DNA of 64,000 nt from the NCBI GenBank assembly GCA_011605725.1, contig JAAOZP010000014.1, forward strand, positions 64,001-128,000, read 5' to 3'. The notes below the pieces were generated by a model, which did not search any database, was not told the origin of the DNA, and saw only the letters and a program-made list of their open reading frames with translations. Numbering within the stretch: the stretch's first letter is position 1; the number at the start of each line of letters is the position of its first letter. Below, piece after piece: positions 14,539-30,664 of the stretch. Source of the DNA: Nitrososphaerota archaeon (GTDB taxonomy: Archaea; Thermoproteota; EX4484-205; JAAOZP01). Position numbers and translations under genes: made by a program.

Positions 14539-14553
14539 CTTTAGAAGAAAAAG

Positions 14554-14716
14554 TTAATATAGTAGTGGAGCGGTCTCCGCTGAGGAGGTGTATAGTGCAC
14601 ATGGCCAGCAACGCCCAAAGGGGGCGAGACTACCTGCGTTGCAGAGACAGCGACACCTCTATCGGAGTCTGCTGAAAAACAATATTGTTTTAAACCTGTT
14701 TTAGGAGGGTTTCGTA
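14554..14716 (+). promoter_or_regulatory. leu operon promoter and leader (TATA, uORF, hairpin, main SD)
   Basis: TTAATATA 14554-14561, GGAGGTG 14584-14590, palindrome AAAACAATATTGTTTT 14676-14691; shares motifs with the ilv leader. Confidence 0.7.
14595..14675 (+). CDS. Putative leu operon leader peptide (26 aa) MHMASNAQRGRDYLRCRDSDTSIGVC
   Basis: GTG 4 nt after GGAGGTG; AxRGRD in the same register as the ilv leader peptide. Confidence 0.6.
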   Translation: MHMASNAQRGRDYLRCRDSDTSIGVC

Positions 14717-16252
14717 ATGGTTTGGAGAGGATATATTGCTGAGGCTGAAATACCTGGCAGGGTGATTCTTTTCGACACTACTTTAAGAGATGGTGAACAG
14801 ACTCCTGGAGTCGCGCTTACGCCCGAGGACAAGCTTAAGATAGCGAGACAGCTGGACTTGCTTGGAGTACCCGTATTGGAAGCAGGCTTTCCAGCAGCGT
14901 CGCGCGGCGAGGAGGAGGCTATTAAGCAGATAGCTAGAGAAGGGTTGAACGCGGAGGTCGCTGCCTTATCCAGATGCGTGAAGGAGGATGTTGAGAAGAC
15001 TGCTTCAACCGGTGCACGGAGAATACATCTTTTCATAGCAACCTCAGACATACATTTGAATAAGAAGCTGCAGATAAGCAGGGATGAAGCTGTATGCAGA
15101 GCGGTTGAATCCATAGACCTTGCTAAATCCTACGGTATGAAAATAGAGTTTTCAGCTGAGGATGCGACTCGGACGAGCATCGATTTCCTAGTGGAGTTTT
15201 ACAGGAGGGTTGAAGAGGCGGGAGCAAGCATAGTCGACATTCCTGATACTGTTGGTGTTGCAACACCCTTTGCTATGAGGGAGATTGTTAAGAGGGTTCG
15301 CAAAGCCCTGAGGATCCCGGTTGCAGTGCACTGTCACAACGACATGGGTCTAGCAGTTGCGAACACGCTTGCAGGCATTGAGGGCGGAGCCTCTGAGGCG
15401 CATGTAACAATTAATGGACTTGGGGAGAGAGCAGGCAACGCGAGCCTAGAGGAGGTGGCGGTTTCCCTGAAAGTATTGTATGGTGTTGAAACAGGCTTAA
15501 AGTTTAAAGAGATATACAACACTTGCAGGCTTGTCTCACTGATAACTGGCGTAGCAATACCTGTGAATAAGCCTATAGTTGGAGAAAACGCTTTCTCCCA
15601 TGAGAGCGGTATCCATACTCACGGCATACTGGCGTCTCCAGAGACTTACGAGCCTATAGACCCTGGGTTTGTTGGAGCTAGGAGAAAGCTGGTAGCTGGA
15701 AAGCACGCCGGTGTCCACGGGATTTCAGCGCAGCTTGAAGAAATGGGGTACAGGCTTAGTGAGGAGGAGTTGAAACAGGTTCTTAAAATAGTTAAGGATA
15801 TTGGCGACAAGGGTAAGAAGGTTACTGACGCGGAACTCGCCTCGATAGCTGAAAGCGTTATAGGGTACGGGGTCGGTGAGAAGGATCGCATCGAGCTTGA
15901 AGAGCTTCTGGTGGTCACTGGGTTAAACACGACGCCGACAGCAGCAATAAAGATAAGAAGGGGTGAACAGGCTTGGAGAGGAGCGGAGTTCGGAGTGGGG
16001 CCGATAGATGCTTCGATGAAGGCAGTCAGCAAGCTTCTTGGAGACCTGGTTAAGATTAAGCTTGAAAGCTTCAGGTTGGAGGCAATCACGGGAGGCACGG
16101 ATGCGCTTGCAGAAGTTACGGTCAGGGTTTCAGATGAAGAAGGGAGGAGTGTGACTGCGAAGGGATTCAGCGAGGACATTGTGCTAGCAGGGGTTTACGC
16201 GATATTAAACGGGGCTAACAGGCTTCTGCAGATTAAGAGGGCTGGTAGATGA
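14717..16252 (+). CDS. leuA: 2-isopropylmalate synthase (or citramalate synthase CimA)
   Basis: DTTLRDGEQ, HCHND, GERAGNA, HESGIH, C-terminal regulatory domain. Confidence 0.88.
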   Translation: MVWRGYIAEAEIPGRVILFDTTLRDGEQTPGVALTPEDKLKIARQLDLLGVPVLEAGFPAASRGEEEAIKQIAREGLNAEVAALSRCVKEDVEKTASTGARRIHLFIATSDIHLNKKLQISRDEAVCRAVESIDLAKSYGMKIEFSAEDATRTSIDFLVEFYRRVEEAGASIVDIPDTVGVATPFAMREIVKRVRKALRIPVAVHCHNDMGLAVANTLAGIEGGASEAHVTINGLGERAGNASLEEVAVSLKVLYGVETGLKFKEIYNTCRLVSLITGVAIPVNKPIVGENAFSHESGIHTHGILASPETYEPIDPGFVGARRKLVAGKHAGVHGISAQLEEMGYRLSEEELKQVLKIVKDIGDKGKKVTDAELASIAESVIGYGVGEKDRIELEELLVVTGLNTTPTAAIKIRRGEQAWRGAEFGVGPIDASMKAVSKLLGDLVKIKLESFRLEAITGGTDALAEVTVRVSDEEGRSVTAKGFSEDIVLAGVYAILNGANRLLQIKRAGR

Positions 16253-17514
16253 CGGGTTTAACAGCAGTACAGAAGGTGCTTTCCAGGAAAACAGGCAGGC
16301 CTCGTGTGGAACCTGGTGAAATAGTTGAGGCTAAGGTGGATTTCCTAATGTTGCACGAGGTAACTGGGCCACTGGCTGTCGAAGAGTTTGAAAAAATCTC
16401 TGGAAAAGTCTGGGACCCAAGTAGGGTGATAGTGGTTTTCGACCATGATGTTCCGCCGAGCACGATAGACTTAGCCAACCAGATGAGAAGGATGAGAAGC
16501 TTCGTTAAGAAACACGGGGTAAACAATTTTTTCGAGATAGGCAGGGGAGGTATTGCTCATCAAGTTCTCTTCGAAGAAGGCTTCGACATGCCTGGCTTCC
16601 TGATAGTCGGCGCGGACAGTCATACTTGCACAGCTGGGGCGACTGGCGCAGTTGGAATAGGGGTCGGCTCTACTGATGCTGCTGTTGTCCTAGCAACCGG
16701 AGAGATATGGTTGAGGGTTCCTGAAACACTGTTGGTTGAGGTCAAAGGCAGGCTTAGGAAAGGCGTTTTCGCGAAGGATGTTGCTTTAAGTATCGTTGGG
16801 AGAATTGGCAGCAATGGAGCAACCTATAAGGCTCTGGAGTATTCAGGTGAAACAGTAAGCATGATGTCTCTTTCTGAACGCCTTACTCTTGCAAACCTCT
16901 CCGTGGAGACTGGCGCTAAAACCGGGATTGTTCAGACAGATTCTAAAAGCATTGAGTATGCTGAGAACTCTGGAAGACGCAGCGAGCTACTGGATGTTAG
17001 GAGCGACCCCGACGCGTGCCTGGAGAAAATCGAGATTGATGTTTCAAACTTGGAGCCTGTTGTAAGCCTGCCGCATAGCGTGGATAATGTTAAGCCCGTT
17101 GCAGAAGTTGAAGGCCTTGAGATAGACCAGGCTTTCCTAGGTTCCTGCACGAACGGGAGGCTGGACGATCTTCTCGTAGCCTTCAAGATACTTAAGGGGA
17201 GAAGGGTCGCGCCGAGCGTGAGGCTGGTGGTTAGCCCGGCTTCAGTCAAGGTGTATGCGGAGGCTTTGAGAGCAGGAGTCGTCGAGGAGATTGTGCGGGC
17301 AGGAGGAATAGTGACAAGCCCAACATGTGGTCCCTGCCTCGGAATGTCGAGGGGAGTTCTTGCTGAAGGAGAGGTTGCAGTTTCAAGCAGCAACAGGAAC
17401 TTTATAGGCAGAATGGGTGATAAGAGGAGTAAAGTGTTCCTCGCTTCCCCGGCGACAGTGGTTGCGTCAGCGGTAGAGGGAAGAATAGCTGATCCAAGGA
17501 GGTTTCTGCCTTGA
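16249..17514 (+). CDS. leuC: 3-isopropylmalate dehydratase large subunit
   Basis: GADSHTCT, GSCTNGR, CGPCLG, NRNFIGRMG. Confidence 0.92.
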   Translation: MTGLTAVQKVLSRKTGRPRVEPGEIVEAKVDFLMLHEVTGPLAVEEFEKISGKVWDPSRVIVVFDHDVPPSTIDLANQMRRMRSFVKKHGVNNFFEIGRGGIAHQVLFEEGFDMPGFLIVGADSHTCTAGATGAVGIGVGSTDAAVVLATGEIWLRVPETLLVEVKGRLRKGVFAKDVALSIVGRIGSNGATYKALEYSGETVSMMSLSERLTLANLSVETGAKTGIVQTDSKSIEYAENSGRRSELLDVRSDPDACLEKIEIDVSNLEPVVSLPHSVDNVKPVAEVEGLEIDQAFLGSCTNGRLDDLLVAFKILKGRRVAPSVRLVVSPASVKVYAEALRAGVVEEIVRAGGIVTSPTCGPCLGMSRGVLAEGEVAVSSSNRNFIGRMGDKRSKVFLASPATVVASAVEGRIADPRRFLP

Positions 17515-18008
17515 AGATACGCGGTAGGATTATTAGGCTTGGAGACAACGTGGATACTGACGTGATAATACCTGCAAGATACTTGGTGACTCACGATGCG
17601 GAGGTTCTTGCGAAACATGTTTTCGAAGACTATTATCCTGAATTCAGGGCAAAGGCTTCTGGTGGAGCGATAATAGTTGCCGGAGAGGACTTCGGGCTGG
17701 GGAGCTCAAGAGAGCATGCAGTAATAGCTTTGAAACACTCCGGTGTGAAAGCGATAGTAGCTAAGTCTTTTGCAAGAATCTTCTACAGGAATTCTATCAA
17801 CCTGGGTCTTCCCGCGCTCGTCTTAAGAAGTAATGAGGGTTTTGACAAGCTTAAGGATGGGGATGAGGCTGAGCTTGATGTCTCCAACGGGGTTTTGACG
17901 ATTATCAGAACCGGGGAGAAGTTTTCCTGCGATAAAATGCCTGAATTCATGATGAAAATAATAGAAGCAGGAGGCTTAATAAACTATTTTTTGAAGAAAC
18001 ACGGATGA
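17511..18008 (+). CDS. leuD: 3-isopropylmalate dehydratase small subunit
   Basis: DTDVIIPARYL, GSSREHA, SFARIFYRN. Confidence 0.93.
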   Translation: MKIRGRIIRLGDNVDTDVIIPARYLVTHDAEVLAKHVFEDYYPEFRAKASGGAIIVAGEDFGLGSSREHAVIALKHSGVKAIVAKSFARIFYRNSINLGLPALVLRSNEGFDKLKDGDEAELDVSNGVLTIIRTGEKFSCDKMPEFMMKIIEAGGLINYFLKKHG

Positions 18009-18056: not shown

Positions 18057-18917
18057 ATGAAACTATTACTGTTGCAGCGGAGAGAAGCAGTTAGAAGGGA
18101 GGCTGTTGGCAGTTATTCCTGCGAGCAGTGTGGGCGTCCACTGAGCCCTGAATACAAGTTCTGCCCAGCCTGCGGAACCCCGCGGAGAGGAGTCTCCTAC
18201 GTTAGGAGGGTTTCAACAGGCAACCCGGCTATAGACGAGATTCTGGAGGGTGGTTTCGAAGTGGGTAAAACATATCTGCTCGCCGGGGAGGCTGGAACCG
18301 GTAAGACGATTTTCAGCTTACAATACCTCTTACACGGGGCTAAGAATAATGAGCCCGGAATATATGTTACGATAGACGAGAGGCCGGAGATGCTTGTTAG
18401 AGACGTGAGGAACTTCGGCTGGGATCTTCAGCCGCTCATAGAGACAAAGAAGCTTGCGATACTCCCGGTTAGGAGATACTTCACCTCCAAGATGTGGGGG
18501 AGGGAAATGGACACTATAGTTAACAACATAATAGAGGAGCTTGACAGGAGGAGGAGGGAGATAGGGGCTAAGAGGCTTGTCATAGATCCTATAGCCCCGT
18601 TGGTAACTACTTATTCGAACGAGGTTGCATGGGTTAGAGAATACATCAGGAGCCTCATATTCTCTATTGAGGAGAAGCTCGGTGTAACCACGGTTATAAC
18701 GTCAGAAGTCCCTACTGGGGAGAACATGATGAGCAGGTATGGTGTTGAAGAGTTTCTGGCGAGCGGCGTAATATTACTATCCCTGTCTAGAGTTGGGAAC
18801 TCCATAATAAGGACGATGTTTATAAGGAAGATGCGCTGGACTGCTGTGAACCCAACGATCTACAGGTTTGAAATAGAAAGGGGTCGTGGAATAGTTCTTA
18901 AAGAACCGTTAAGCTAA
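18057..18917 (+). CDS. KaiC/RAD55-like ATPase with N-terminal zinc ribbon
   Basis: CEQC...CPAC, GEAGTGKT, LVID, IRKMR. Confidence 0.85.
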   Translation: MKLLLLQRREAVRREAVGSYSCEQCGRPLSPEYKFCPACGTPRRGVSYVRRVSTGNPAIDEILEGGFEVGKTYLLAGEAGTGKTIFSLQYLLHGAKNNEPGIYVTIDERPEMLVRDVRNFGWDLQPLIETKKLAILPVRRYFTSKMWGREMDTIVNNIIEELDRRRREIGAKRLVIDPIAPLVTTYSNEVAWVREYIRSLIFSIEEKLGVTTVITSEVPTGENMMSRYGVEEFLASGVILLSLSRVGNSIIRTMFIRKMRWTAVNPTIYRFEIERGRGIVLKEPLS

Positions 18918-21134: not shown

Positions 21135-21412
21135 CCCTAAGCCGGATGAACCTGCAGAAACATGCTAATAAGGGTTACATGAAAAACGGTTTGAAACATT
21201 CTGAAGGCTTAAAAGCGATCAGCATTTTACGGGTTTCCCTAGAGACAAGTGGTGGCGAGCTAAGATTCTACAAGGGTTGAGACGCCTCCGGTAGTCCAGA
21301 AGCATGTGAATCACACTCCACGGAAAGCCTTTCCCCCGGTTTTCTACGCGCGCAAAAAGCAGCGGGCAAAACTTAAAAGGCTCAAAAACAAGTATTTCAA
21401 GAGGAACTCGTC

Positions 21413-22544: not shown

Positions 22545-23558
22545 TTAAAGCCTGAAACTGGCCTCAATGCTTGGACGTATCGGTTGAGAATCGTAGCCCA
22601 GCCTCCTAAGCTCCCTTGAAAACTCTTCCGGGAAACCGTGGACTGTGAAAACCTTCTCCGGACAGGTTTTCCTAACGATTTCCACCAGGCCGTTGAAATC
22701 AGCATGATCGCTCAACGGGAAAGCCTTGTCAACGCCCAGCGCCTCGCTATACCAGTCGAAAATCGACCTGCCTGAGAAGCTTATGAAGACAGCACCATAC
22801 TTCCTTTTAACAAGCTGCATGAAAGCATTTCTACCGGAGACATTAGGATAGTATAGGGCCCAGGATCCCTCAGGCAGCTCTGGAGACTGGGGTGTGAAAA
22901 CCTTCTTCCCACTTATCCCCATTGAGAAAAGCCTGTAAACATTGTTATACTCTGCTATAGATGGTGAAACATATGTTTCAACAACATCCTGGAGAACAGG
23001 GTCTAAAACCATTTGAACATGTTGAGACTTGCCAAGCGGGTATCCCATTAGAACTATGGGTCTGCCTCTTCTCACTGTTTCACTAACGTAGTCGACAATC
23101 TCGCCTATCAGCTGTCTTCTCGAGGGGAAAACCAGGCCGGGGCGACCATAGTTAGACTCTATTATGAGAGTATGAACCCTTGGGAAGCACGGTTCAGGTA
23201 TGCCCTCAACCGGTGAAGTGTTAACATCTCCCGTGTAAAGAATCCCTCCCCTATCGGTTTCAACAAGCAGGGCTTTAGACCCTAAAATATGGCCTGAGTC
23301 CAGAAGGGTGAAAGGATTGTTCTCAACACGCTTAACTTCAAGCCCCCTGAGCGTGGAAAGAAGCAGAGTCTCCTCCGAGCATACTGCTGAGGCTTTCTTC
23401 GCGTCAGACCTGCCTAAATGGTCGAAGTGCGCGTGAGATATGAAAAGATAGTTGAAAGACTCGTCTGAGCCTGTTTTCAGAAAAGCCTCTCCCCCTTTGA
23501 AGCAGAGGGTTGCGAAACGGTCAAGCTTAACTGAAAAACCCTTGAACGCTGCGGACAT
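22545..23558 (-). CDS. MBL-fold beta-CASP nuclease (SNM1/ligase-associated exonuclease-like)
   Basis: SHAHFDH, SGHILG, YTGD, ESNYG, LSDHAD, VHG. Confidence 0.82.
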   Translation of the reverse strand: MSAAFKGFSVKLDRFATLCFKGGEAFLKTGSDESFNYLFISHAHFDHLGRSDAKKASAVCSEETLLLSTLRGLEVKRVENNPFTLLDSGHILGSKALLVETDRGGILYTGDVNTSPVEGIPEPCFPRVHTLIIESNYGRPGLVFPSRRQLIGEIVDYVSETVRRGRPIVLMGYPLGKSQHVQMVLDPVLQDVVETYVSPSIAEYNNVYRLFSMGISGKKVFTPQSPELPEGSWALYYPNVSGRNAFMQLVKRKYGAVFISFSGRSIFDWYSEALGVDKAFPLSDHADFNGLVEIVRKTCPEKVFTVHGFPEEFSRELRRLGYDSQPIRPSIEASFRL

Positions 23559-23561
23559 TGG

Positions 23562-25196
23562 CTAGGTGAAAAACCTGTTTTCCCTCAGCTTAGCTAAAAA
23601 CCGGCTTTCAAGCCTCTTAGCCGGCGGAACCCATTTCCTCCTTCTCTCCTCAAGCTCGTCTCTATCGACAAGCAGGTCCAGCCTTCTTTCCGGCACGTCT
23701 ACAAGTATCTCGTCACCGTCCTCCACGAGCGCTATAGGTCCCCCCAAGTAGGCCTCTGGGGAAACATGGCCTATGGCAATTCCCTTCGTGCCCCCTGAGA
23801 ATCTTCCGTCAGTAACCAGCGCAACCCTTTCAACAAGGTTCCTGCCAACTATTAGCGAGGTCGGCATCAGCATTTCACGCATACCGGGGCCGCCTAGAAG
23901 CCCCTCGTAGCGCACGACAACTACAGTGTCCACAGTGAAATCCTCTTTCTCAAGCGCTTCAACAGCCTCCTCCTCAGAGTTGAAAACCCTAGCCCTGCCT
24001 CTGAACGTTCTAAGCTGAACAGGTGTTCCAGCAAGCTTAATCACAGCGCCCTCCGGCGCCAAGGACCCCCATAGCACCGCTATGCCTCCTTCACCTCTAT
24101 ACGGGTTATCCGGAGAACGTATAAGCATGCCCCTTGGATCTGGAAACTCTTCAACAAGCTCCCGGAGACGCCTACCGGTAACAGTTAAAACATCCAGGTT
24201 AAGATATTTTTTAAGAGTCTTCATGAGCGAGGGGACTCCGCCCGCGTTGTAGAAGTCGATCATGAAGCTCTCGCCGGACGGCCTTATTAGAGCCAGCGTA
24301 GGTATCCTTCTGCTCAGCTCGTCGAAGGTCTTTAGAGGAAGCTCGTACCCAGCCTCCTTGGCTAGAGCGCTCAAGTGGAGAACAGTGTTGGTGGAGCCTC
24401 CGAGAGCATTATCAACAATTATAGCGTTAACAATGCTTTCAGGCTTAACAATATCCTTAAACCTTAAACCCTCCTTCCAGAGTTCCACTATTCGCCTTCC
24501 AGACTCGTATGCAAGAGTCTTCTTACCCTCGTCCTCAGCGTGAGTAGCAGCCATGCCGGGAAGCGATATGCCCATCGCCTCAACCAGGCAAGCCATAGTG
24601 TTAGCAGTGAAAAGGCCGGCGCAGCTTCCGGCGCCGGGGCAAGCAGCCTGTTCAAACTCCCTCAGTTCTTCAAGCGTAATCCTTCCCTCACGGTATTCCC
24701 CGAGCGCTTCGAAGACTGAAACCAAGTCAACCCTCCTGCCTTTGAACAACCCCGGATACATGGGTCCGCCTGTAACGAATATCGACGGAAGATTCAGCCT
24801 GGCTGCTGCCAGCAGGTGGCCGGGAACAATCTTGTCGCATGAAGATATGAAAACCAGGGCGTCGAACACGTGTGCTGAAACCATTATTTCAACCGAGTCG
24901 GCTATGACTTCTCTGCTTGGGAGCGAGAACCTCATTCCATCATGGTTCATCGCAATACCGTCGCAGACAGCGATCGTGTTGAAGATGAAAGGCACCCCGC
25001 CGCTGTCTCTAACACCCTTGGAAACGTTTTCCGCAAGCACGTTGAGGTGAACATGTCCTGGGACAACGTTAGTGAAGGAGTTGACTACACCTATGAAAGG
25101 CTTTTCGAAGTCCTGGTTTCTCAAGCCTATGGCGTGAAGCAGAGACCTGTGCGGAGCCCTGTCCACACCTTTTTTTACAGCGTCGCTCCTCATCAA
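23562..25196 (-). CDS. ilvD: Dihydroxy-acid dehydratase
   Basis: CDGIAM, CDK, TANTM, GGSTN, TDGRFSG, HVSPEA. Confidence 0.96.
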   Translation of the reverse strand: MMRSDAVKKGVDRAPHRSLLHAIGLRNQDFEKPFIGVVNSFTNVVPGHVHLNVLAENVSKGVRDSGGVPFIFNTIAVCDGIAMNHDGMRFSLPSREVIADSVEIMVSAHVFDALVFISSCDKIVPGHLLAAARLNLPSIFVTGGPMYPGLFKGRRVDLVSVFEALGEYREGRITLEELREFEQAACPGAGSCAGLFTANTMACLVEAMGISLPGMAATHAEDEGKKTLAYESGRRIVELWKEGLRFKDIVKPESIVNAIIVDNALGGSTNTVLHLSALAKEAGYELPLKTFDELSRRIPTLALIRPSGESFMIDFYNAGGVPSLMKTLKKYLNLDVLTVTGRRLRELVEEFPDPRGMLIRSPDNPYRGEGGIAVLWGSLAPEGAVIKLAGTPVQLRTFRGRARVFNSEEEAVEALEKEDFTVDTVVVVRYEGLLGGPGMREMLMPTSLIVGRNLVERVALVTDGRFSGGTKGIAIGHVSPEAYLGGPIALVEDGDEILVDVPERRLDLLVDRDELEERRRKWVPPAKRLESRFLAKLRENRFFT

Positions 25197-25203
25197 GTCT
25201 TTT

Positions 25204-26187
25204 TCAACCGTACACCATCGACCTTATTTTCCTTCCAACAGTCTCTATCAAGTGGTTTCTCTCTCTTTCAACGAGAGTCTTCAGAACAACCTGGTTCGAA
25301 CTGTTTTCAAGTATCCACTCTCTTGCGAAAACACCTGTCTGAACATCTTCAAGAAGCTTCCTCATCTTCCTCTTAACATCCTCATCTATAAGATAGGGGC
25401 CGCGCGTAAGACCGCCGTACTTAGCAGTATCGCTGACAGCCTGCCACATGCCGGATAAGCCTTTAGACCAGATCAGGTCGACGATAAGCTTAAGCTCGTT
25501 TAAAACTTCGAAGTAAGCCACCTCAGGCTGGTATCCTGCTTCCACAAGGATTTCGAAGCCGCTTTTAATAAGCGACGAGACTCCGCCGCATAGCACAGCC
25601 TGCTCTCCGAAAAGATCTGTCTCAACCTCCTCCTTGAACGAGGTTTCTATCAAGCCGATCCTGCTTAGCCCCACAGCCTTCCCCAGCTCCCTGACTATTC
25701 TTGAAGCATTACCCGTGTAATCCTGGTGGACAGCTATTAAGCCGGGGACCCCGGTTCCGCGAACATATGCTTCTCTTAAAGCAGGACCAGGCGCCTTGGG
25801 AGCCACGAGGACAACGTCGAGCCAGGGAGAAGGAACTATCTGCCTGTAGTGAATGTTGAAAGCATGCGCGAAAACAAGTGTTGAACCCTTAGAGATGTTC
25901 GGCTCAACATGATCCCTGTAGACAGCCGGTTGAGCAGGATCAGGAATAAGCATTAGAATAATGCTGCTTTTTCTAACTGCCTCACTTATCTCGTAGACTT
26001 CGAAGCCGTCTTCAGAAGCCCTTCTCCAAGACGAGCCTTCTCTTCTCAAGCCTATTATCGTGTTAACACCGCTGTCTCTAATGTTCTTAGCCTGAGCCTC
26101 ACCCTGGGAGCCATAGCCTATCACGGCGACAGTCTTATTCTTAATCAGCTCGATGCTTATTTCATCATCCCTTATTATCCTAGCCAT
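25204..26187 (-). CDS. ilvC: Ketol-acid reductoisomerase
   Basis: GYGSQG, APKAPG, ETDLFGEQAVLCGG. Confidence 0.96.
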   Translation of the reverse strand: MARIIRDDEISIELIKNKTVAVIGYGSQGEAQAKNIRDSGVNTIIGLRREGSSWRRASEDGFEVYEISEAVRKSSIILMLIPDPAQPAVYRDHVEPNISKGSTLVFAHAFNIHYRQIVPSPWLDVVLVAPKAPGPALREAYVRGTGVPGLIAVHQDYTGNASRIVRELGKAVGLSRIGLIETSFKEEVETDLFGEQAVLCGGVSSLIKSGFEILVEAGYQPEVAYFEVLNELKLIVDLIWSKGLSGMWQAVSDTAKYGGLTRGPYLIDEDVKRKMRKLLEDVQTGVFAREWILENSSNQVVLKTLVERERNHLIETVGRKIRSMVYG

Positions 26188-26231
26188 CCTCAGTCACCCC
26201 TACTCCACGGCTACGTTTTCTTTTAAGCTTT

Positions 26232-26720
26232 TTACTTTCTGAAACGGTTCAAAGTGTGAATCATCACACCGCTCCTCGAGAAGCTTTCAACACGATCTTT
26301 AAACTCCTCCTTAAAGTCGTCGACAACCCTAGGGTCGGCGAGGAGCTCGACGAGAAGCCTGGAGCCGCTCAGCAAGGTTGTTCTAGCCCTATACCTGACC
26401 CTGATATAGTCGCTCACACTAGTGTCACAATCCTTCAGCACAGCTACGAAAGCCTCCCTTATCACATCGTACTCGAGAGAACCTATCTTAACCTCGAAGA
26501 CACATGGGTTTTTCTCAAGAACCTTAACTATGTTTTCAAATTTCTCCTGAGGCAGGCTGAAGGTTAGAGATATCTCCGAGGTCTTCCCGTTCACCATGCC
26601 GACAGTTATCGTGTCAATGTTTATTGCTCTCCTCGCGAATATTGAGGCTATTCTCTCCATCACCCCAGGCATGTTGAGAACCCTGAGCACAACGAACCTC
26701 TTATTCTCGTCTGAAGCCAT
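26232..26720 (-). CDS. ilvN: Acetolactate synthase small (regulatory) subunit
   Basis: ACT domain NMPGVMERIASIFARRAINI; between ilvB and ilvC. Confidence 0.85.
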   Translation of the reverse strand: MASDENKRFVVLRVLNMPGVMERIASIFARRAINIDTITVGMVNGKTSEISLTFSLPQEKFENIVKVLEKNPCVFEVKIGSLEYDVIREAFVAVLKDCDTSVSDYIRVRYRARTTLLSGSRLLVELLADPRVVDDFKEEFKDRVESFSRSGVMIHTLNRFRK

Positions 26721-26728
26721 TTTCCACC

Positions 26729-28402
26729 CTACCTCCTTACGATGACTCTGTCAAGCGGGGCAGCCGGGGGAACCATTGGGAAAACATTATCCTCTCTCGC
26801 GACAATCACGTCTAACACAGTTGTCTCATCCTGCTTTAAAGCGGTTTCAAGAGCGTTTTTAAGCTCGCTTATCCTCGTCACTTTAAACCCTTTAGCGCCG
26901 AAACCCTCTGAAACCCTAGCTATGTCAGCTCTGCCCTTCAAATCCACAGCCATATACCTCCTGCCGTAGAAAAGCTCCTGCCACTGTCTAACCATGCCCA
27001 GGAAATAATTGTTAAGAACCAAGACTATGATCGGCAGGTTATAGTCTACTGAAACCGGAAGCTGGTTACAAGTCATGAAGAAGCTACCGTCTCCAGCTAT
27101 GTCGAAAACACGGCTCTCCGGGAAGGCTGCTTTAACCCCGATCGCAGCCGGAAGCCCGAAGCCCATTGTGCCAAGTCCGCCGGAGGATATGAATTGTCTC
27201 GGACGCTTAGCTGTAAAGTGGAGTGAAGCATACATCTGGCACTGGCCTACCTCCGTCGTCACAAAGTCTTCAGCCTTAACATAGTCGTTCAGAACCCTTA
27301 CGGCAGTACTTGGATCAACCGGAACAGCATCGTAATCGTAAAGGAACTCAGATTCCTTCTTGAGCTGTTTAACTCTTTCACCCCACGTAGCAGCCTTGCC
27401 CTTCTTGAAAAGCCTGAGAATCGTTTCGCGAATCCTGATTAAAACCTGCTTAGCGTCACCGGCGACGCCAAGGTCGGGCTTAAGCAGCTTCCCGATTTCA
27501 GACCTATCTATGTCAACATGTATCTTCCTCGCTCCCGGGGCGAAGCCGCTTAACTTACCAGTAGTCCTGTCGCTAAACCTCATGCCTACTGCAAGAATCA
27601 GGTCGCTCTCCTGAACAGCCTTGATCGCGCCTAGCTTCCCATGCATTCCAACCATGCCTAGGGACAACGGATGGTCTTCAGGAATGCTTCCCTTGCCCAT
27701 TAGAGTCGTCGCTACGGGAGCGTTTAGAAGCTCAGCAAGGGCGATAAGCTCGCTGGACGCGCCTGATATTATTACTCCGCCTCCAGCTATGATCACAGGC
27801 CTCTCAGCCTCAACCAGCATCTTTGAGACTGTTAGAATCTCCTCGTCGGAGGGAGAGGGAGGAGTATAAGAGTAGATGTAGAAATCGTCATCAGGCTCGC
27901 CCTCCATCAGCTGAACATCCCTAGGGACGTCGATGTGAACAGGCCCAGGTCTTCCGGATAAGGCTATTTTAAAAGCGTTCTCAAGCGCAGAGTTAAGCTC
28001 GTTTAAGTCTCTAGGTAGAAAGTTCATCTTCGTCAACCCTATCATCATCGAGAAAACATTAGCCTCCTGAAAACCGTCGTAACCTATGAGAGGCGTCGCA
28101 ACCTGGCCGGCTATGCTTAAAACCGGCGAGGAATCCAAGTAGGCGTTGGCAATTCCTGTTGCAAGATTAGTGGCGCCAGGGCCGGATGTGGCGACGACAA
28201 CGCCAATCCTGCCGGTTGCCCTAGCATACCCGTCAGCCATGTGGGCAGCACCCTGCTCATGCCTCGCGAGAATGAACTCTATGTCGCCAGCCTTATAAAG
28301 CTCGTCTAGAAACGGGAGCACAGCCCCACCGGGTACTCCGAAGATGGTTTTAACCCCGTTCTCCCTCAGCTTCTCAACTAGTAGTCTAGACCCTGAAACC
28401 AT
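26729..28402 (-). CDS. ilvB: Acetolactate synthase large subunit
   Basis: RHEQGA, TSGPGATN, GLGTMGFG, GDGSF; start at ATG 28402 after SD GAGGTG. Confidence 0.95.
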   Translation of the reverse strand: MVSGSRLLVEKLRENGVKTIFGVPGGAVLPFLDELYKAGDIEFILARHEQGAAHMADGYARATGRIGVVVATSGPGATNLATGIANAYLDSSPVLSIAGQVATPLIGYDGFQEANVFSMMIGLTKMNFLPRDLNELNSALENAFKIALSGRPGPVHIDVPRDVQLMEGEPDDDFYIYSYTPPSPSDEEILTVSKMLVEAERPVIIAGGGVIISGASSELIALAELLNAPVATTLMGKGSIPEDHPLSLGMVGMHGKLGAIKAVQESDLILAVGMRFSDRTTGKLSGFAPGARKIHVDIDRSEIGKLLKPDLGVAGDAKQVLIRIRETILRLFKKGKAATWGERVKQLKKESEFLYDYDAVPVDPSTAVRVLNDYVKAEDFVTTEVGQCQMYASLHFTAKRPRQFISSGGLGTMGFGLPAAIGVKAAFPESRVFDIAGDGSFFMTCNQLPVSVDYNLPIIVLVLNNYFLGMVRQWQELFYGRRYMAVDLKGRADIARVSEGFGAKGFKVTRISELKNALETALKQDETTVLDVIVAREDNVFPMVPPAAPLDRVIVRR

Positions 28403-28577
28403 TTGAAACACCTCTTGCAAACGGCTTTTTGAAAACCACTGTTTTCTCTAGCGGAGGCTGGGTTTGCAGCGGGACTCCTGCAGTTGGTGGACGGTGTCCC
28501 GCCCCCTTGGAGCGTGAATATTATGGTACACTCAGCGCACCTCCTAAGCAGTGTGCCCATTGAGAGGCCTATATTAA
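28403..28577 (-). promoter_or_regulatory. ilv operon promoter and leader (TATA, uORF, hairpin, main SD)
   Basis: TTAATATA at 28577-28570, GGAGGTG at 28544-28538, hairpin GAAAAC-AGTG-GTTTTC at 28446-28431. Confidence 0.7.
28448..28531 (-). CDS. Putative ilv operon leader peptide (27 aa) MYHNIHAPRGRDTVHQLQESRCKPSLR
   Basis: GTG 6 nt after GGAGGTG; AxRGRD at codons 7-12 as in the leu leader. Confidence 0.6.
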   Translation of the reverse strand: MYHNIHAPRGRDTVHQLQESRCKPSLR

Positions 28578-30589: not shown

Positions 30590-30664
30590 GCGGCGCTGGT
30601 CTAACCTGGTTATGACACCAGCCCCCCAAGCTGGGAACTCCGGGTTCAAATCCCGGGCGCCGCA
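30590..30664 (+). tRNA. tRNA-Gly(CCC) with atypical C33 and A15-U48
   Basis: Near-copy of the tRNA-Gly at 13461; anticodon loop CCCCCAA. Confidence 0.88.

Follow-up and report, generated by a model that had tools for sequence, protein, structure and literature searches.

A conserved leader with an operon-specific codon precedes the leu and ilv operons of Candidatus Brockarchaeota and may act as a ribosome-mediated attenuator

Ribosome-mediated attenuation is a textbook bacterial mechanism that relies on coupled transcription and translation, and it may be asked whether an archaeon could adjust the synthesis of its branched-chain amino acids (BCAAs) in a comparable manner. The question is raised by a stretch of 64,000 nucleotides (nt) from a Nitrososphaerota archaeon (assembly GCA_011605725.1, contig JAAOZP010000014.1, positions 64,001 to 128,000 of the forward strand), hereafter the window, in which the leu and ilv operons are each preceded by a leader that holds a short upstream reading frame. 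An earlier interpretation, made without database searches (the sequence-only reading), had proposed that the frame upstream of leuA combines a peptide stalling motif, A-x-R-G-R-D, with one sensor codon and, in this way, couples leucine availability to operon expression. Comparison with related genomes suggests that the leader is most likely a lineage-specific cis-regulatory element of Candidatus Brockarchaeota, and we assign a probability of about 0.45 to the proposal that it acts as a ribosome-mediated attenuator of both operons.

The leu leader lies on the plus strand and begins with a B-recognition element (BRE)-like AAAAAG joined to a TATA box, TTAATATA (14548-14561, with the TATA box at 14554-14561), which is invariant across the leu and ilv leaders. 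A spacer (14562-14583) leads to the Shine-Dalgarno (SD) sequence GGAGGTG (SD1, 14584-14590), invariant across the genus, and from the GTG at 14595 a frame of 26 codons extends to a TGA at 14673-14675 (14595-14675 as a whole). TATA box, perfect SD and GTG-initiated frame are thus all present where the sequence-only reading had located them. Codons 7 to 12, GCC CAA AGG GGG CGA GAC (14613-14630), read A7-x-R9-G10-R11-D12. As had also been claimed, the ilv operon has the same layout with A-x-R-G-R-D, in this case on the minus strand: the leader as a whole occupies 28583-28403, with the TATA box at 28577-28570, SD1 (GGAGGTG) at 28544-28538, a frame of 27 codons plus TAG that starts with the GTG at 28531 (28531-28448), the core at 28508-28496 and a second SD, AAGAGGTG, at 28416-28409. 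The mean column identity of the leu and ilv leader alignment is 76%, and the differences within the shared residues are, as described before, synonymous (GCC/GCT, CGA/CGG).

How widespread is this arrangement? The sequence AAGGGGGCGRGAC occurs exactly twice in the 2.2-Mb genome, and none of its three leuA-like paralogous synthase genes is preceded by such a leader. The composite pattern GGAGGTG-(20-50 nt)-ARGGGGGCGRGA was found in 16 of the 17 species genomes of this genus of Candidatus Brockarchaeota, with two copies (leuA and ilvB) in 15 of them, and its reversed control gave zero matches in the genus genomes; a sequence model of the core region recovered the leader in all 17. Every leader of the genus precedes leuA or ilvB, and two copies are present wherever both loci have been assembled. 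The recurrence of the leader at leu and ilv loci exceeds chance. Elsewhere in the class, which comprises 26 genomes in total, the sister family f3 has the ilv leader before ilvB and lacks the leu leader, family f4 gave no ilvB match with the query used, and family f2 carries its BCAA genes in one long operon without the RGRD leader. Among 125 other genomes of the phylum, only chance-level matches were obtained, none of them adjoining leuA or ilvB. When the ilv-type core was compared with 185,579 species genomes, 16 records were recovered, all archaeal by name (Candidatus Brockarchaeota or unclassified Thermoproteota, Crenarchaeota, Nitrososphaerota and Bathyarchaeota archaea). One further match in a Clostridiales genome and one in a metagenome contig are attributed to chance, order-level matches in genus g5 correspond to a tRNA gene on the opposite strand, and weak matches of the model elsewhere in Thermoproteota have no leuA or ilvB close by. 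Metagenome contigs supply a few more leader variants. The Brockarchaeota lineage, which is uncultured, has been described from hot springs and vent sediments (PMC8065059). Two hot-spring runs that are labelled metatranscriptomic, and are known as contigs, are probably DNA and are not informative on expression or transcript ends.

Within the genus, 30 distinct leaders (15 leu and 15 ilv) were compared in order to ask whether the upstream frame is conserved as such. The RGRD frame is free of stops in all 30, while the other two frames are closed by stops in 10 and 14 of the 15 leu leaders and in 1 and 15 of the 15 ilv leaders. After shuffling of the columns of the leu alignment, a procedure that preserves relatedness and composition, the frame remained stop-free in only 98 of 20,000 trials. 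A start codon is found in every leader of the genus: in most of them it is a GTG six bases past GGAGGTG, and the leaders without GTG at codon 1 have an ATG at codon 3. The leu leader of the window has both, its in-frame ATG at 14601 being the start codon position used by sister species. The stop of the leu frame is located at codon 27 in 14 of 15 leaders, and varies among TGA, TAG and TAA; the remaining leader has a 6-nt in-frame deletion. Neither frame-breaking indels nor missing start codons, either of which had been named beforehand as a reason to abandon the proposal, were found in these 30 leaders. In family f3, the frame of the leader begins with ATG, comprises 22 codons and ends in Y-P-V-Y-Q-I-L-C-V-L. 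The pattern SD-GTG-x5-AxRGRD, which had been expected to be conserved among relatives, consequently holds for the SD, the presence of a start and the core; it does not hold in its details, as the GTG is sometimes replaced by the ATG of codon 3 and Ala7 is not universal. Judged by its start, its openness, the position of its stop and the in-frame deletion, the upstream frame is conserved as a frame, and we infer from this that it would be translated.

Two bases between SD1 and the start region are missing from the window (14591-14595) and present in all sister species; without them, the loop of the hairpin H1 (see below) is shorter, and the GTG of codon 1 and the ATG of codon 3 are both in frame. 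Contigs from the hot-spring runs that belong to a relative about 88% alike carry both of these extra bases.

The core of the frame bears on what has been selected. In the leu leader it is a purine-rich element, AAGGGGGCGAGAC (14618-14630), that reads R9 G10 R11 D12, mimics an SD sequence and has the rare CGA as codon 11. Between this genome and f3, identical residues of IlvB share the same third base at only 39 of 117 positions (33%), whereas the leader codons AGG, GGG, CGA, GTC and CAA are unchanged. The conservation of core codons despite saturation of synonymous sites points to selection on RNA or on codon choice. In two lineages (genome G005 and locus L127), GGG has become AGG, a change that replaces Gly10 by Arg and turns AAGGGGG into AAGGAGG, with complementarity to CCUCC retained; in either form, the AGGGGG or AGGAGG of the core is complementary to the 16S rRNA 3′ end (...CACCUCCU-3′). 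Arg11 is encoded only by CGA or CGG, the rarest Arg codons of this genome (3% and 5%, respectively). Six nt separate the end of the purine run from codon 13, and 9 nt separate it from codon 14; the distance between GGAGG and the start codon is 8 nt both for SD1 (in GTG-type leaders) and for the SD of the main gene. On this comparative evidence, selection on the core concerns the RNA or the codons and not the peptide, and the peptide sequence outside the core and a few codons is not under selection.

These observations also bear on the possibility that R-G-R-D is a nascent-peptide arrest motif that, from within the exit tunnel, either sensitizes the ribosome to codon 14 or senses the free amino acid, as TnaC, SpeFL and AAP do. 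Short arrest motifs containing Arg and Gly exist in bacteria, and all leaders retain R9, R11 and, at position 12, an acidic or aromatic residue. Against this, the same codons have been kept where synonymous sites are saturated, Gly10 has changed to Arg twice, f3 has Cys for Ala7 and Tyr for Asp12, L127 has Gly for Ala7, G010 has Glu for Asp12, and the remainder of the peptide is not conserved. We therefore consider arrest by the peptide improbable. Of the original suggestion of a stalling motif plus a sensor codon, what stands is the conserved frame and its operon-specific codon, and what falls is the peptide motif; the case shows that a peptide motif read from a leader can be a by-product of selection on RNA. 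Frameshifting of the prfB type was considered as well and was rejected: no conserved shifted frame was found downstream of the core, where the other frames carry stops in most leaders.

If the core slows or tethers ribosomes, the codon on which it would do so becomes the relevant one. In the leu frame of the window, the sole Leu codon is the CTG of codon 14 (14634-14636), a candidate sensor codon, and the ilv frame has a Val codon, GTC (28492-28490), at the same place, both as first reported by the sequence-only reading. All 15 distinct leu leaders have CTG as codon 14, between variable codons 13 and 15, and every ilv leader has GTC there, that of f3 and the metagenome variants included; the codon lies at a fixed distance from the core. 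The ilv leaders of the genus also have CTG at codon 17 (28483-28481 in the window), where f3 has ATT CTT. Apart from Val14, the ilv peptide of the window contains Ile5, Leu17 and Leu26, and the tail of the f3 peptide has V, I, L, V and L. No run of cognate codons was found: the leu leaders have one invariant Leu, and the ilv leaders have one Val and one Leu (V, I, L, V, L in f3). The chance that the invariant codon would be one for Leu in the leu set and one for a BCAA in the ilv set amounts to a few percent. Read side by side, the ilv leader resembles the leu leader plus nine bases, (A/C)CC GTC CRC, ahead of CTG, and such a Val-bearing insert fits an ilv operon that responds to more than one amino acid. 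The tRNA census obtained with ARAGORN was too incomplete for judging which tRNAs read CUG or CGA. A gene for tRNA-Gly(CCC), which reads the core codon GGG, is located at 30590-30664 (plus strand), 2 kb upstream of the ilv promoter; its nearness is probably a coincidence.

An operon-specific codon at a fixed place beside a conserved core could also be the specifier of a T-box-like RNA, in which uncharged tRNA would pair directly with CUG or GUC. This is highly improbable, given that there is no T-box match even at E-values of up to 10, that inspection revealed no Stem I-like element, T-box sequence or conserved purine after the codon, and that such an RNA has no need of a conserved frame. Alternatively, the frame might be translated and yet sense no amino acid, serving constitutively as a loading or standby frame through which translational coupling would open the main gene's SD, or as a stabilizer of the 5′ end of the mRNA. 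The presence of only one cognate codon and of a 5′ terminal hairpin agrees with such a role, as does an anti-SD-like segment that, in every type of leader, belongs to or directly follows the 3′ end of the frame, where terminating ribosomes would melt any pairing with the SD of the main gene. A constitutive device of this kind is nevertheless rather improbable: the leader precedes only the two BCAA operons of each genome, it is absent from the paralogous synthase genes, and the difference between the invariant codons of the two operons is the one that their end products would predict.

For an attenuator to act, the upstream frame must lie within the transcript, and the geometry of the promoter indicates that it would. 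In this genome, BRE/TATA-like sites fall into two classes, one in which they precede the start codon by 22-23 nt (leaderless mRNAs) and a second in which they precede it by 30-44 nt and an SD-like sequence begins at approximately the expected transcript start. The leu and ilv leaders belong to the second class, as the distance from TATA to GGAGGTG is 22 nt in leu and 25 nt in ilv, and their order of elements (TATA, 22-25 nt, SD, 4-6 nt, start codon) is that of ordinary genes of this genome. With the A in front of it, SD1 is perfectly complementary, over 8 nt, to the 3′ end of the 16S rRNA (...GGAUCACCUCCU). Since the distance from TATA to SD1 matches the distance from TATA to transcript start in this genome, the mRNA should begin at SD1, and the short upstream frame would consequently be the first frame on the transcript. 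In f3, the first ATG occurs 27 nt after the TATA box, and its frame may be leaderless or nearly so.

The region between TATA and the predicted transcript start contains an inverted repeat in all leu and ilv leaders (in the window, within 14562-14583 on the plus strand and 28569-28545 on the minus strand; loci L009-L038). In the leu leader it consists of AGCGG (14569-14573) and CCGCT (14577-14581); the sequence varies by species (e.g., GCCC...GGGC types) and the symmetry is kept. A dimeric regulator that co-evolves with the repeat could use it as an operator; alternatively, the transcript might include this region. These repeats, and the fact that the same 13-nt box is equidistant from both promoters, would agree with the core itself being a DNA operator for a transcription factor common to both, with the frame and the RNA features as secondary. 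Such an explanation is very unlikely, however, because the core is asymmetric and is located about 35 nt downstream of the predicted transcript start, and because the conservation of frame, start and stop and the operon-specific codon would be left unexplained.

Attenuation also demands that the position of the ribosome affect something downstream, and several elements of the predicted RNA may be relevant in this respect. The hairpin H1 (14588-14600 in the window), in which 14588-14592 pairs with 14596-14600, contains the 3′ half of SD1 and the GTG start; in a single register, 92% of its cells are paired in the 15 leu leaders, where GC/GU, UA/UG/CG and AU/GU/GC exchanges occur, and RNAalifold predicts an equivalent in the ilv leaders. 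The hairpin H2 (14612-14626), formed by CGCCC (14612-14616) and GGGCG (14622-14626), has 95% of its cells paired in the genus, although no compensatory change was seen, and neither f3 nor L127 retains it. A sequence that mimics the 3′ end of the 16S rRNA falls within the final codons of the frame or directly behind them (ACACCUCU in leu leaders, GCCUCC or CACCUCC in ilv leaders). Kept in most leaders, this anti-SD-like segment corresponds in the window to ACACCTCT in the leu leader (codons 20-22, 14653-14660) and to GCCTCCGC in the ilv leader (28458-28451). In the RNAalifold consensus folds, it pairs with SD1 in leu leaders and with SD2 in ilv leaders. The frame is followed by a U-rich untranslated spacer of 32-54 nt. 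In the leu leader of the window (14676-14702), this spacer contains an A/U hairpin (AAAACA, 14676-14681, with TGTTTT, 14686-14691) and a second U4 tract (14699-14702), after which SD2, AGGAGGG, precedes the ATG of leuA at 14717 by 7 nt, or by 8 nt if counted from GGAGG (14703-14719, including the ATG). The A/U hairpin, 74% of whose cells are paired, is confined, together with U4, to one leu subgroup; the U tract before SD2 is kept in leu leaders and is missing in some ilv leaders.

From these elements, the following sequence of events may be proposed. Transcription would start about 23 nt after TATA, at GGAGGUG, so that ribosomes would first meet a short upstream frame of 20-27 codons. This frame holds the invariant purine-rich core AAGGRGGCGRGAY, a putative SD mimic with a rare CGR arginine codon, which is placed 6-9 nt before the operon-specific codon, as compared to about 8 nt between a real SD and its start. 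That codon is CUG in leu and, in ilv, GUC, followed three codons on by CUG or, in the sister family, by AUU CUU. The core could slow or tether the ribosome such that the operon-specific codon occupies the A site or a position next to it, and the dwell time of the ribosome might then report the charging of the matching tRNA. Two outputs are conceivable, singly or together: the position of the ribosome may determine whether the anti-SD-like segment pairs with SD1, the core or SD2, and it may determine whether the U-rich spacer becomes accessible to termination. Such termination could be intrinsic, at the U tract, or could depend on FttA/aCPSF1, an archaeal termination factor that prefers U-rich RNA and acts like Rho (PMC13681488). 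In short, Brockarchaeota would sense the charging of branched-chain tRNAs by means of a translated leader whose SD-mimicking, rare-codon core parks the ribosome on a single cognate codon (Leu for leu, Val and Leu for ilv), with SD masking or FttA/U-tract termination as the output. We put this specific scheme forward as tentative and short of probable, given that the pause at the core, the response to tRNA charging and the output are all conjectured from the arrangement of the leader.

The results that weigh against attenuation may now be considered together. When the columns of the ilv set were shuffled, the frame remained open in 3678 of 20,000 trials, so that chance openness is not rejected by the ilv set alone. 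Codon positions 1, 2 and 3 have similar shares of the variable columns (17, 19 and 18 of 26 codons in leu; 10, 12 and 9 of 27 in ilv), as is also expected of untranslated RNA. A terminator-like hairpin followed by a U tract is not universal among the leaders, and folding of the 30 leaders at 37 °C, either as free RNA or with a ribosome-sized mask at codon 12, codon 14 or the stop, produced no consistent change in the accessibility of SD2 and its AUG. Moreover, a single cognate codon is a weak sensor when compared to the codon runs of classical attenuators, and CUG is also found at the foot of small variable hairpins, for which reason its conservation could have its origin in the RNA.

Part of this evidence, namely the even spread of variable sites and the openness of the ilv frame, would fit an untranslated structured RNA (riboswitch-like or protein-binding) in which a binding pocket or site is made up of the core with its flanking sequences and the frame is open only incidentally. 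The conservation of the core at the nucleotide level, with identical codons in different families, the covariation of H1 and the ability of SD-like and anti-SD-like segments to form long-range helices can be read in the same manner. Nevertheless, the openness of the leu frame is unlikely to be due to chance, the start codon is relocated and not lost, the position of the stop survives changes of the stop codon, and the layout is that of the normal initiation sites of this genome. Moreover, single-sequence folds are no more stable than shuffles (z-scores of -0.35 and -1.55), H2 is kept neither in f3 nor in L127, and the leaders match no Rfam family at the gathering threshold or at loose E-values of up to 10, T-box (RF00230) and Leu_leader included. 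An untranslated RNA thus seems unlikely to us, and ribosome-mediated attenuation is the reading with which we continue.

The genes downstream of the two leaders are consistent with this context. On the plus strand, leuA (14717-16252), leuC (16249-17514) and leuD (17511-18008; 14717-18008 as a whole) were assigned by NCBIfam matches above curated cut-offs to 2-isopropylmalate synthase and to the large and small subunits of isopropylmalate dehydratase, respectively. On the minus strand (23562-28402), ilvB (26729-28402), ilvC (25204-26187) and ilvD (23562-25196) also match NCBIfam families over curated cut-offs; the match of ilvN (26232-26720) is weaker (45-51 bits, under its cut-offs of 56.9 and 119 bits). 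A KaiC-like ATPase gene (18057-18917, plus strand) is found on the same strand as leuD, 49 nt past it. The gene that follows ilvD (22545-23558, minus strand) codes for a 337-residue protein of the metallo-beta-lactamase/beta-CASP nuclease type, which has weak matches, below cut-offs, to ligase-associated exonuclease and aCPSF1.

Two other short frames were observed. The long BCAA operon of f2 is preceded by a frame of 15 codons, unrelated to the RGRD leader, whose ATG is found 24 nt after a TATA-like box (L119:9711-9790 and L138:2090-2170, both on the minus strand) and which, given this distance, would be leaderless. It reads MEAPKAVQFRTTCRI in G017 and MEAPRAAQFRTTFLI in G018, with several third-base changes and TGA in one versus TAA in the other. 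Upstream of argH, a 31-codon frame (21219-21314, minus strand) contains three consecutive Arg codons, CGG AGG CGT. It was considered as part of a wider leader system and was rejected, as it lies in an insertion that is missing from the eight relatives sharing the argH start region; this Arg-rich frame is probably not a conserved leader.

With regard to known systems, the sequence-only reading had stated that no equivalent was described for archaeal BCAA operons. Our literature search agrees: it found bacterial attenuators and lists of archaeal upstream open reading frames from ribosome-profiling studies, and no archaeal amino-acid-sensing leader. In the literature searched, therefore, ribosome-based leaders that sense amino acids were found for bacteria only. 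The closest likeness is to the enterobacterial BCAA attenuators leuL, ivbL and ilvL, in which a short frame also opens the leu or ilv transcript, its codons match the end products (Leu for leu; Val and Leu or Ile for ilv) and a U-rich spacer precedes the first gene. By contrast, the leaders described here belong to an archaeal host, have one invariant cognate codon instead of a run, and place a purine-rich, SD-like core just before that codon. They also differ by the lack of a universal terminator hairpin, of sequence similarity and of any Rfam match, and by the lack of demonstrated 1:2, 2:3 and 3:4 stems, conserved alternative stems not having been demonstrated in the consensus or masked folds. 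Related bacterial BCAA leaders include the leucine-rich attenuator peptide of Staphylococcus aureus (PMC5794164) and the ilvBNC leader of Corynebacterium glutamicum (PMC11857589).

Other likenesses concern the output or the place of the frame. As in the translational attenuation of ermC and cat, a ribosome on the leader frame could change the pairing of segments by which the main gene's SD is masked, and anti-SD-like segments are present in the leader; those systems, however, sense a drug through the nascent peptide, and the masked folds obtained here indicated no consistent switch. In the tna operon, where TnaC is combined with Rho-dependent termination, the resemblance is that a stalled leader ribosome could shield the untranslated U-rich spacer (from FttA/aCPSF1 in archaea), an arrangement that would regulate in the right direction. 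TnaC differs in that it senses free Trp by means of its peptide and induces a catabolic operon, and the output proposed here is purely conjectural. The leaderless polycysteine small open reading frames of mycobacteria, which are Cys-responsive attenuators (bioRxiv 10.1101/834739), share with the present leaders a short frame at the 5′ end of the mRNA that controls an amino-acid operon; they are bacterial and have runs of Cys codons, and it is the frames of f3 and f2 that appear leaderless here.

According to a 2025 commentary, direct evidence of functional coupling in archaea is still scarce (PMC13681488). A conserved pair of leaders that differ in an operon-specific codon offers a concrete and mutable test object for this question. 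If attenuation is indeed their function, they would represent a minimal, single-codon form of the ribosome-mediated mechanism with archaeal output machinery.

The particular construction of the core finds its precedent in prfB of Escherichia coli, in which AGGGGG acts as an internal SD during elongation, in the course of a programmed +1 frameshift. The brockarchaeal leaders have the same hexamer in frame, complementary to the 16S rRNA 3′ end and a few nucleotides before the codon at which the ribosome would wait, and their sequence has the features of an internal SD, that is, an in-frame purine run, complementarity to 16S rRNA and SD-like spacing to codons 13 and 14. In contrast to prfB, no alternative frame is conserved, so that only the idea of tethering or pausing carries over. 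The leaders would also put to the test what is possibly a new design principle, in which an SD-like pause element is coupled to a single hungry codon.

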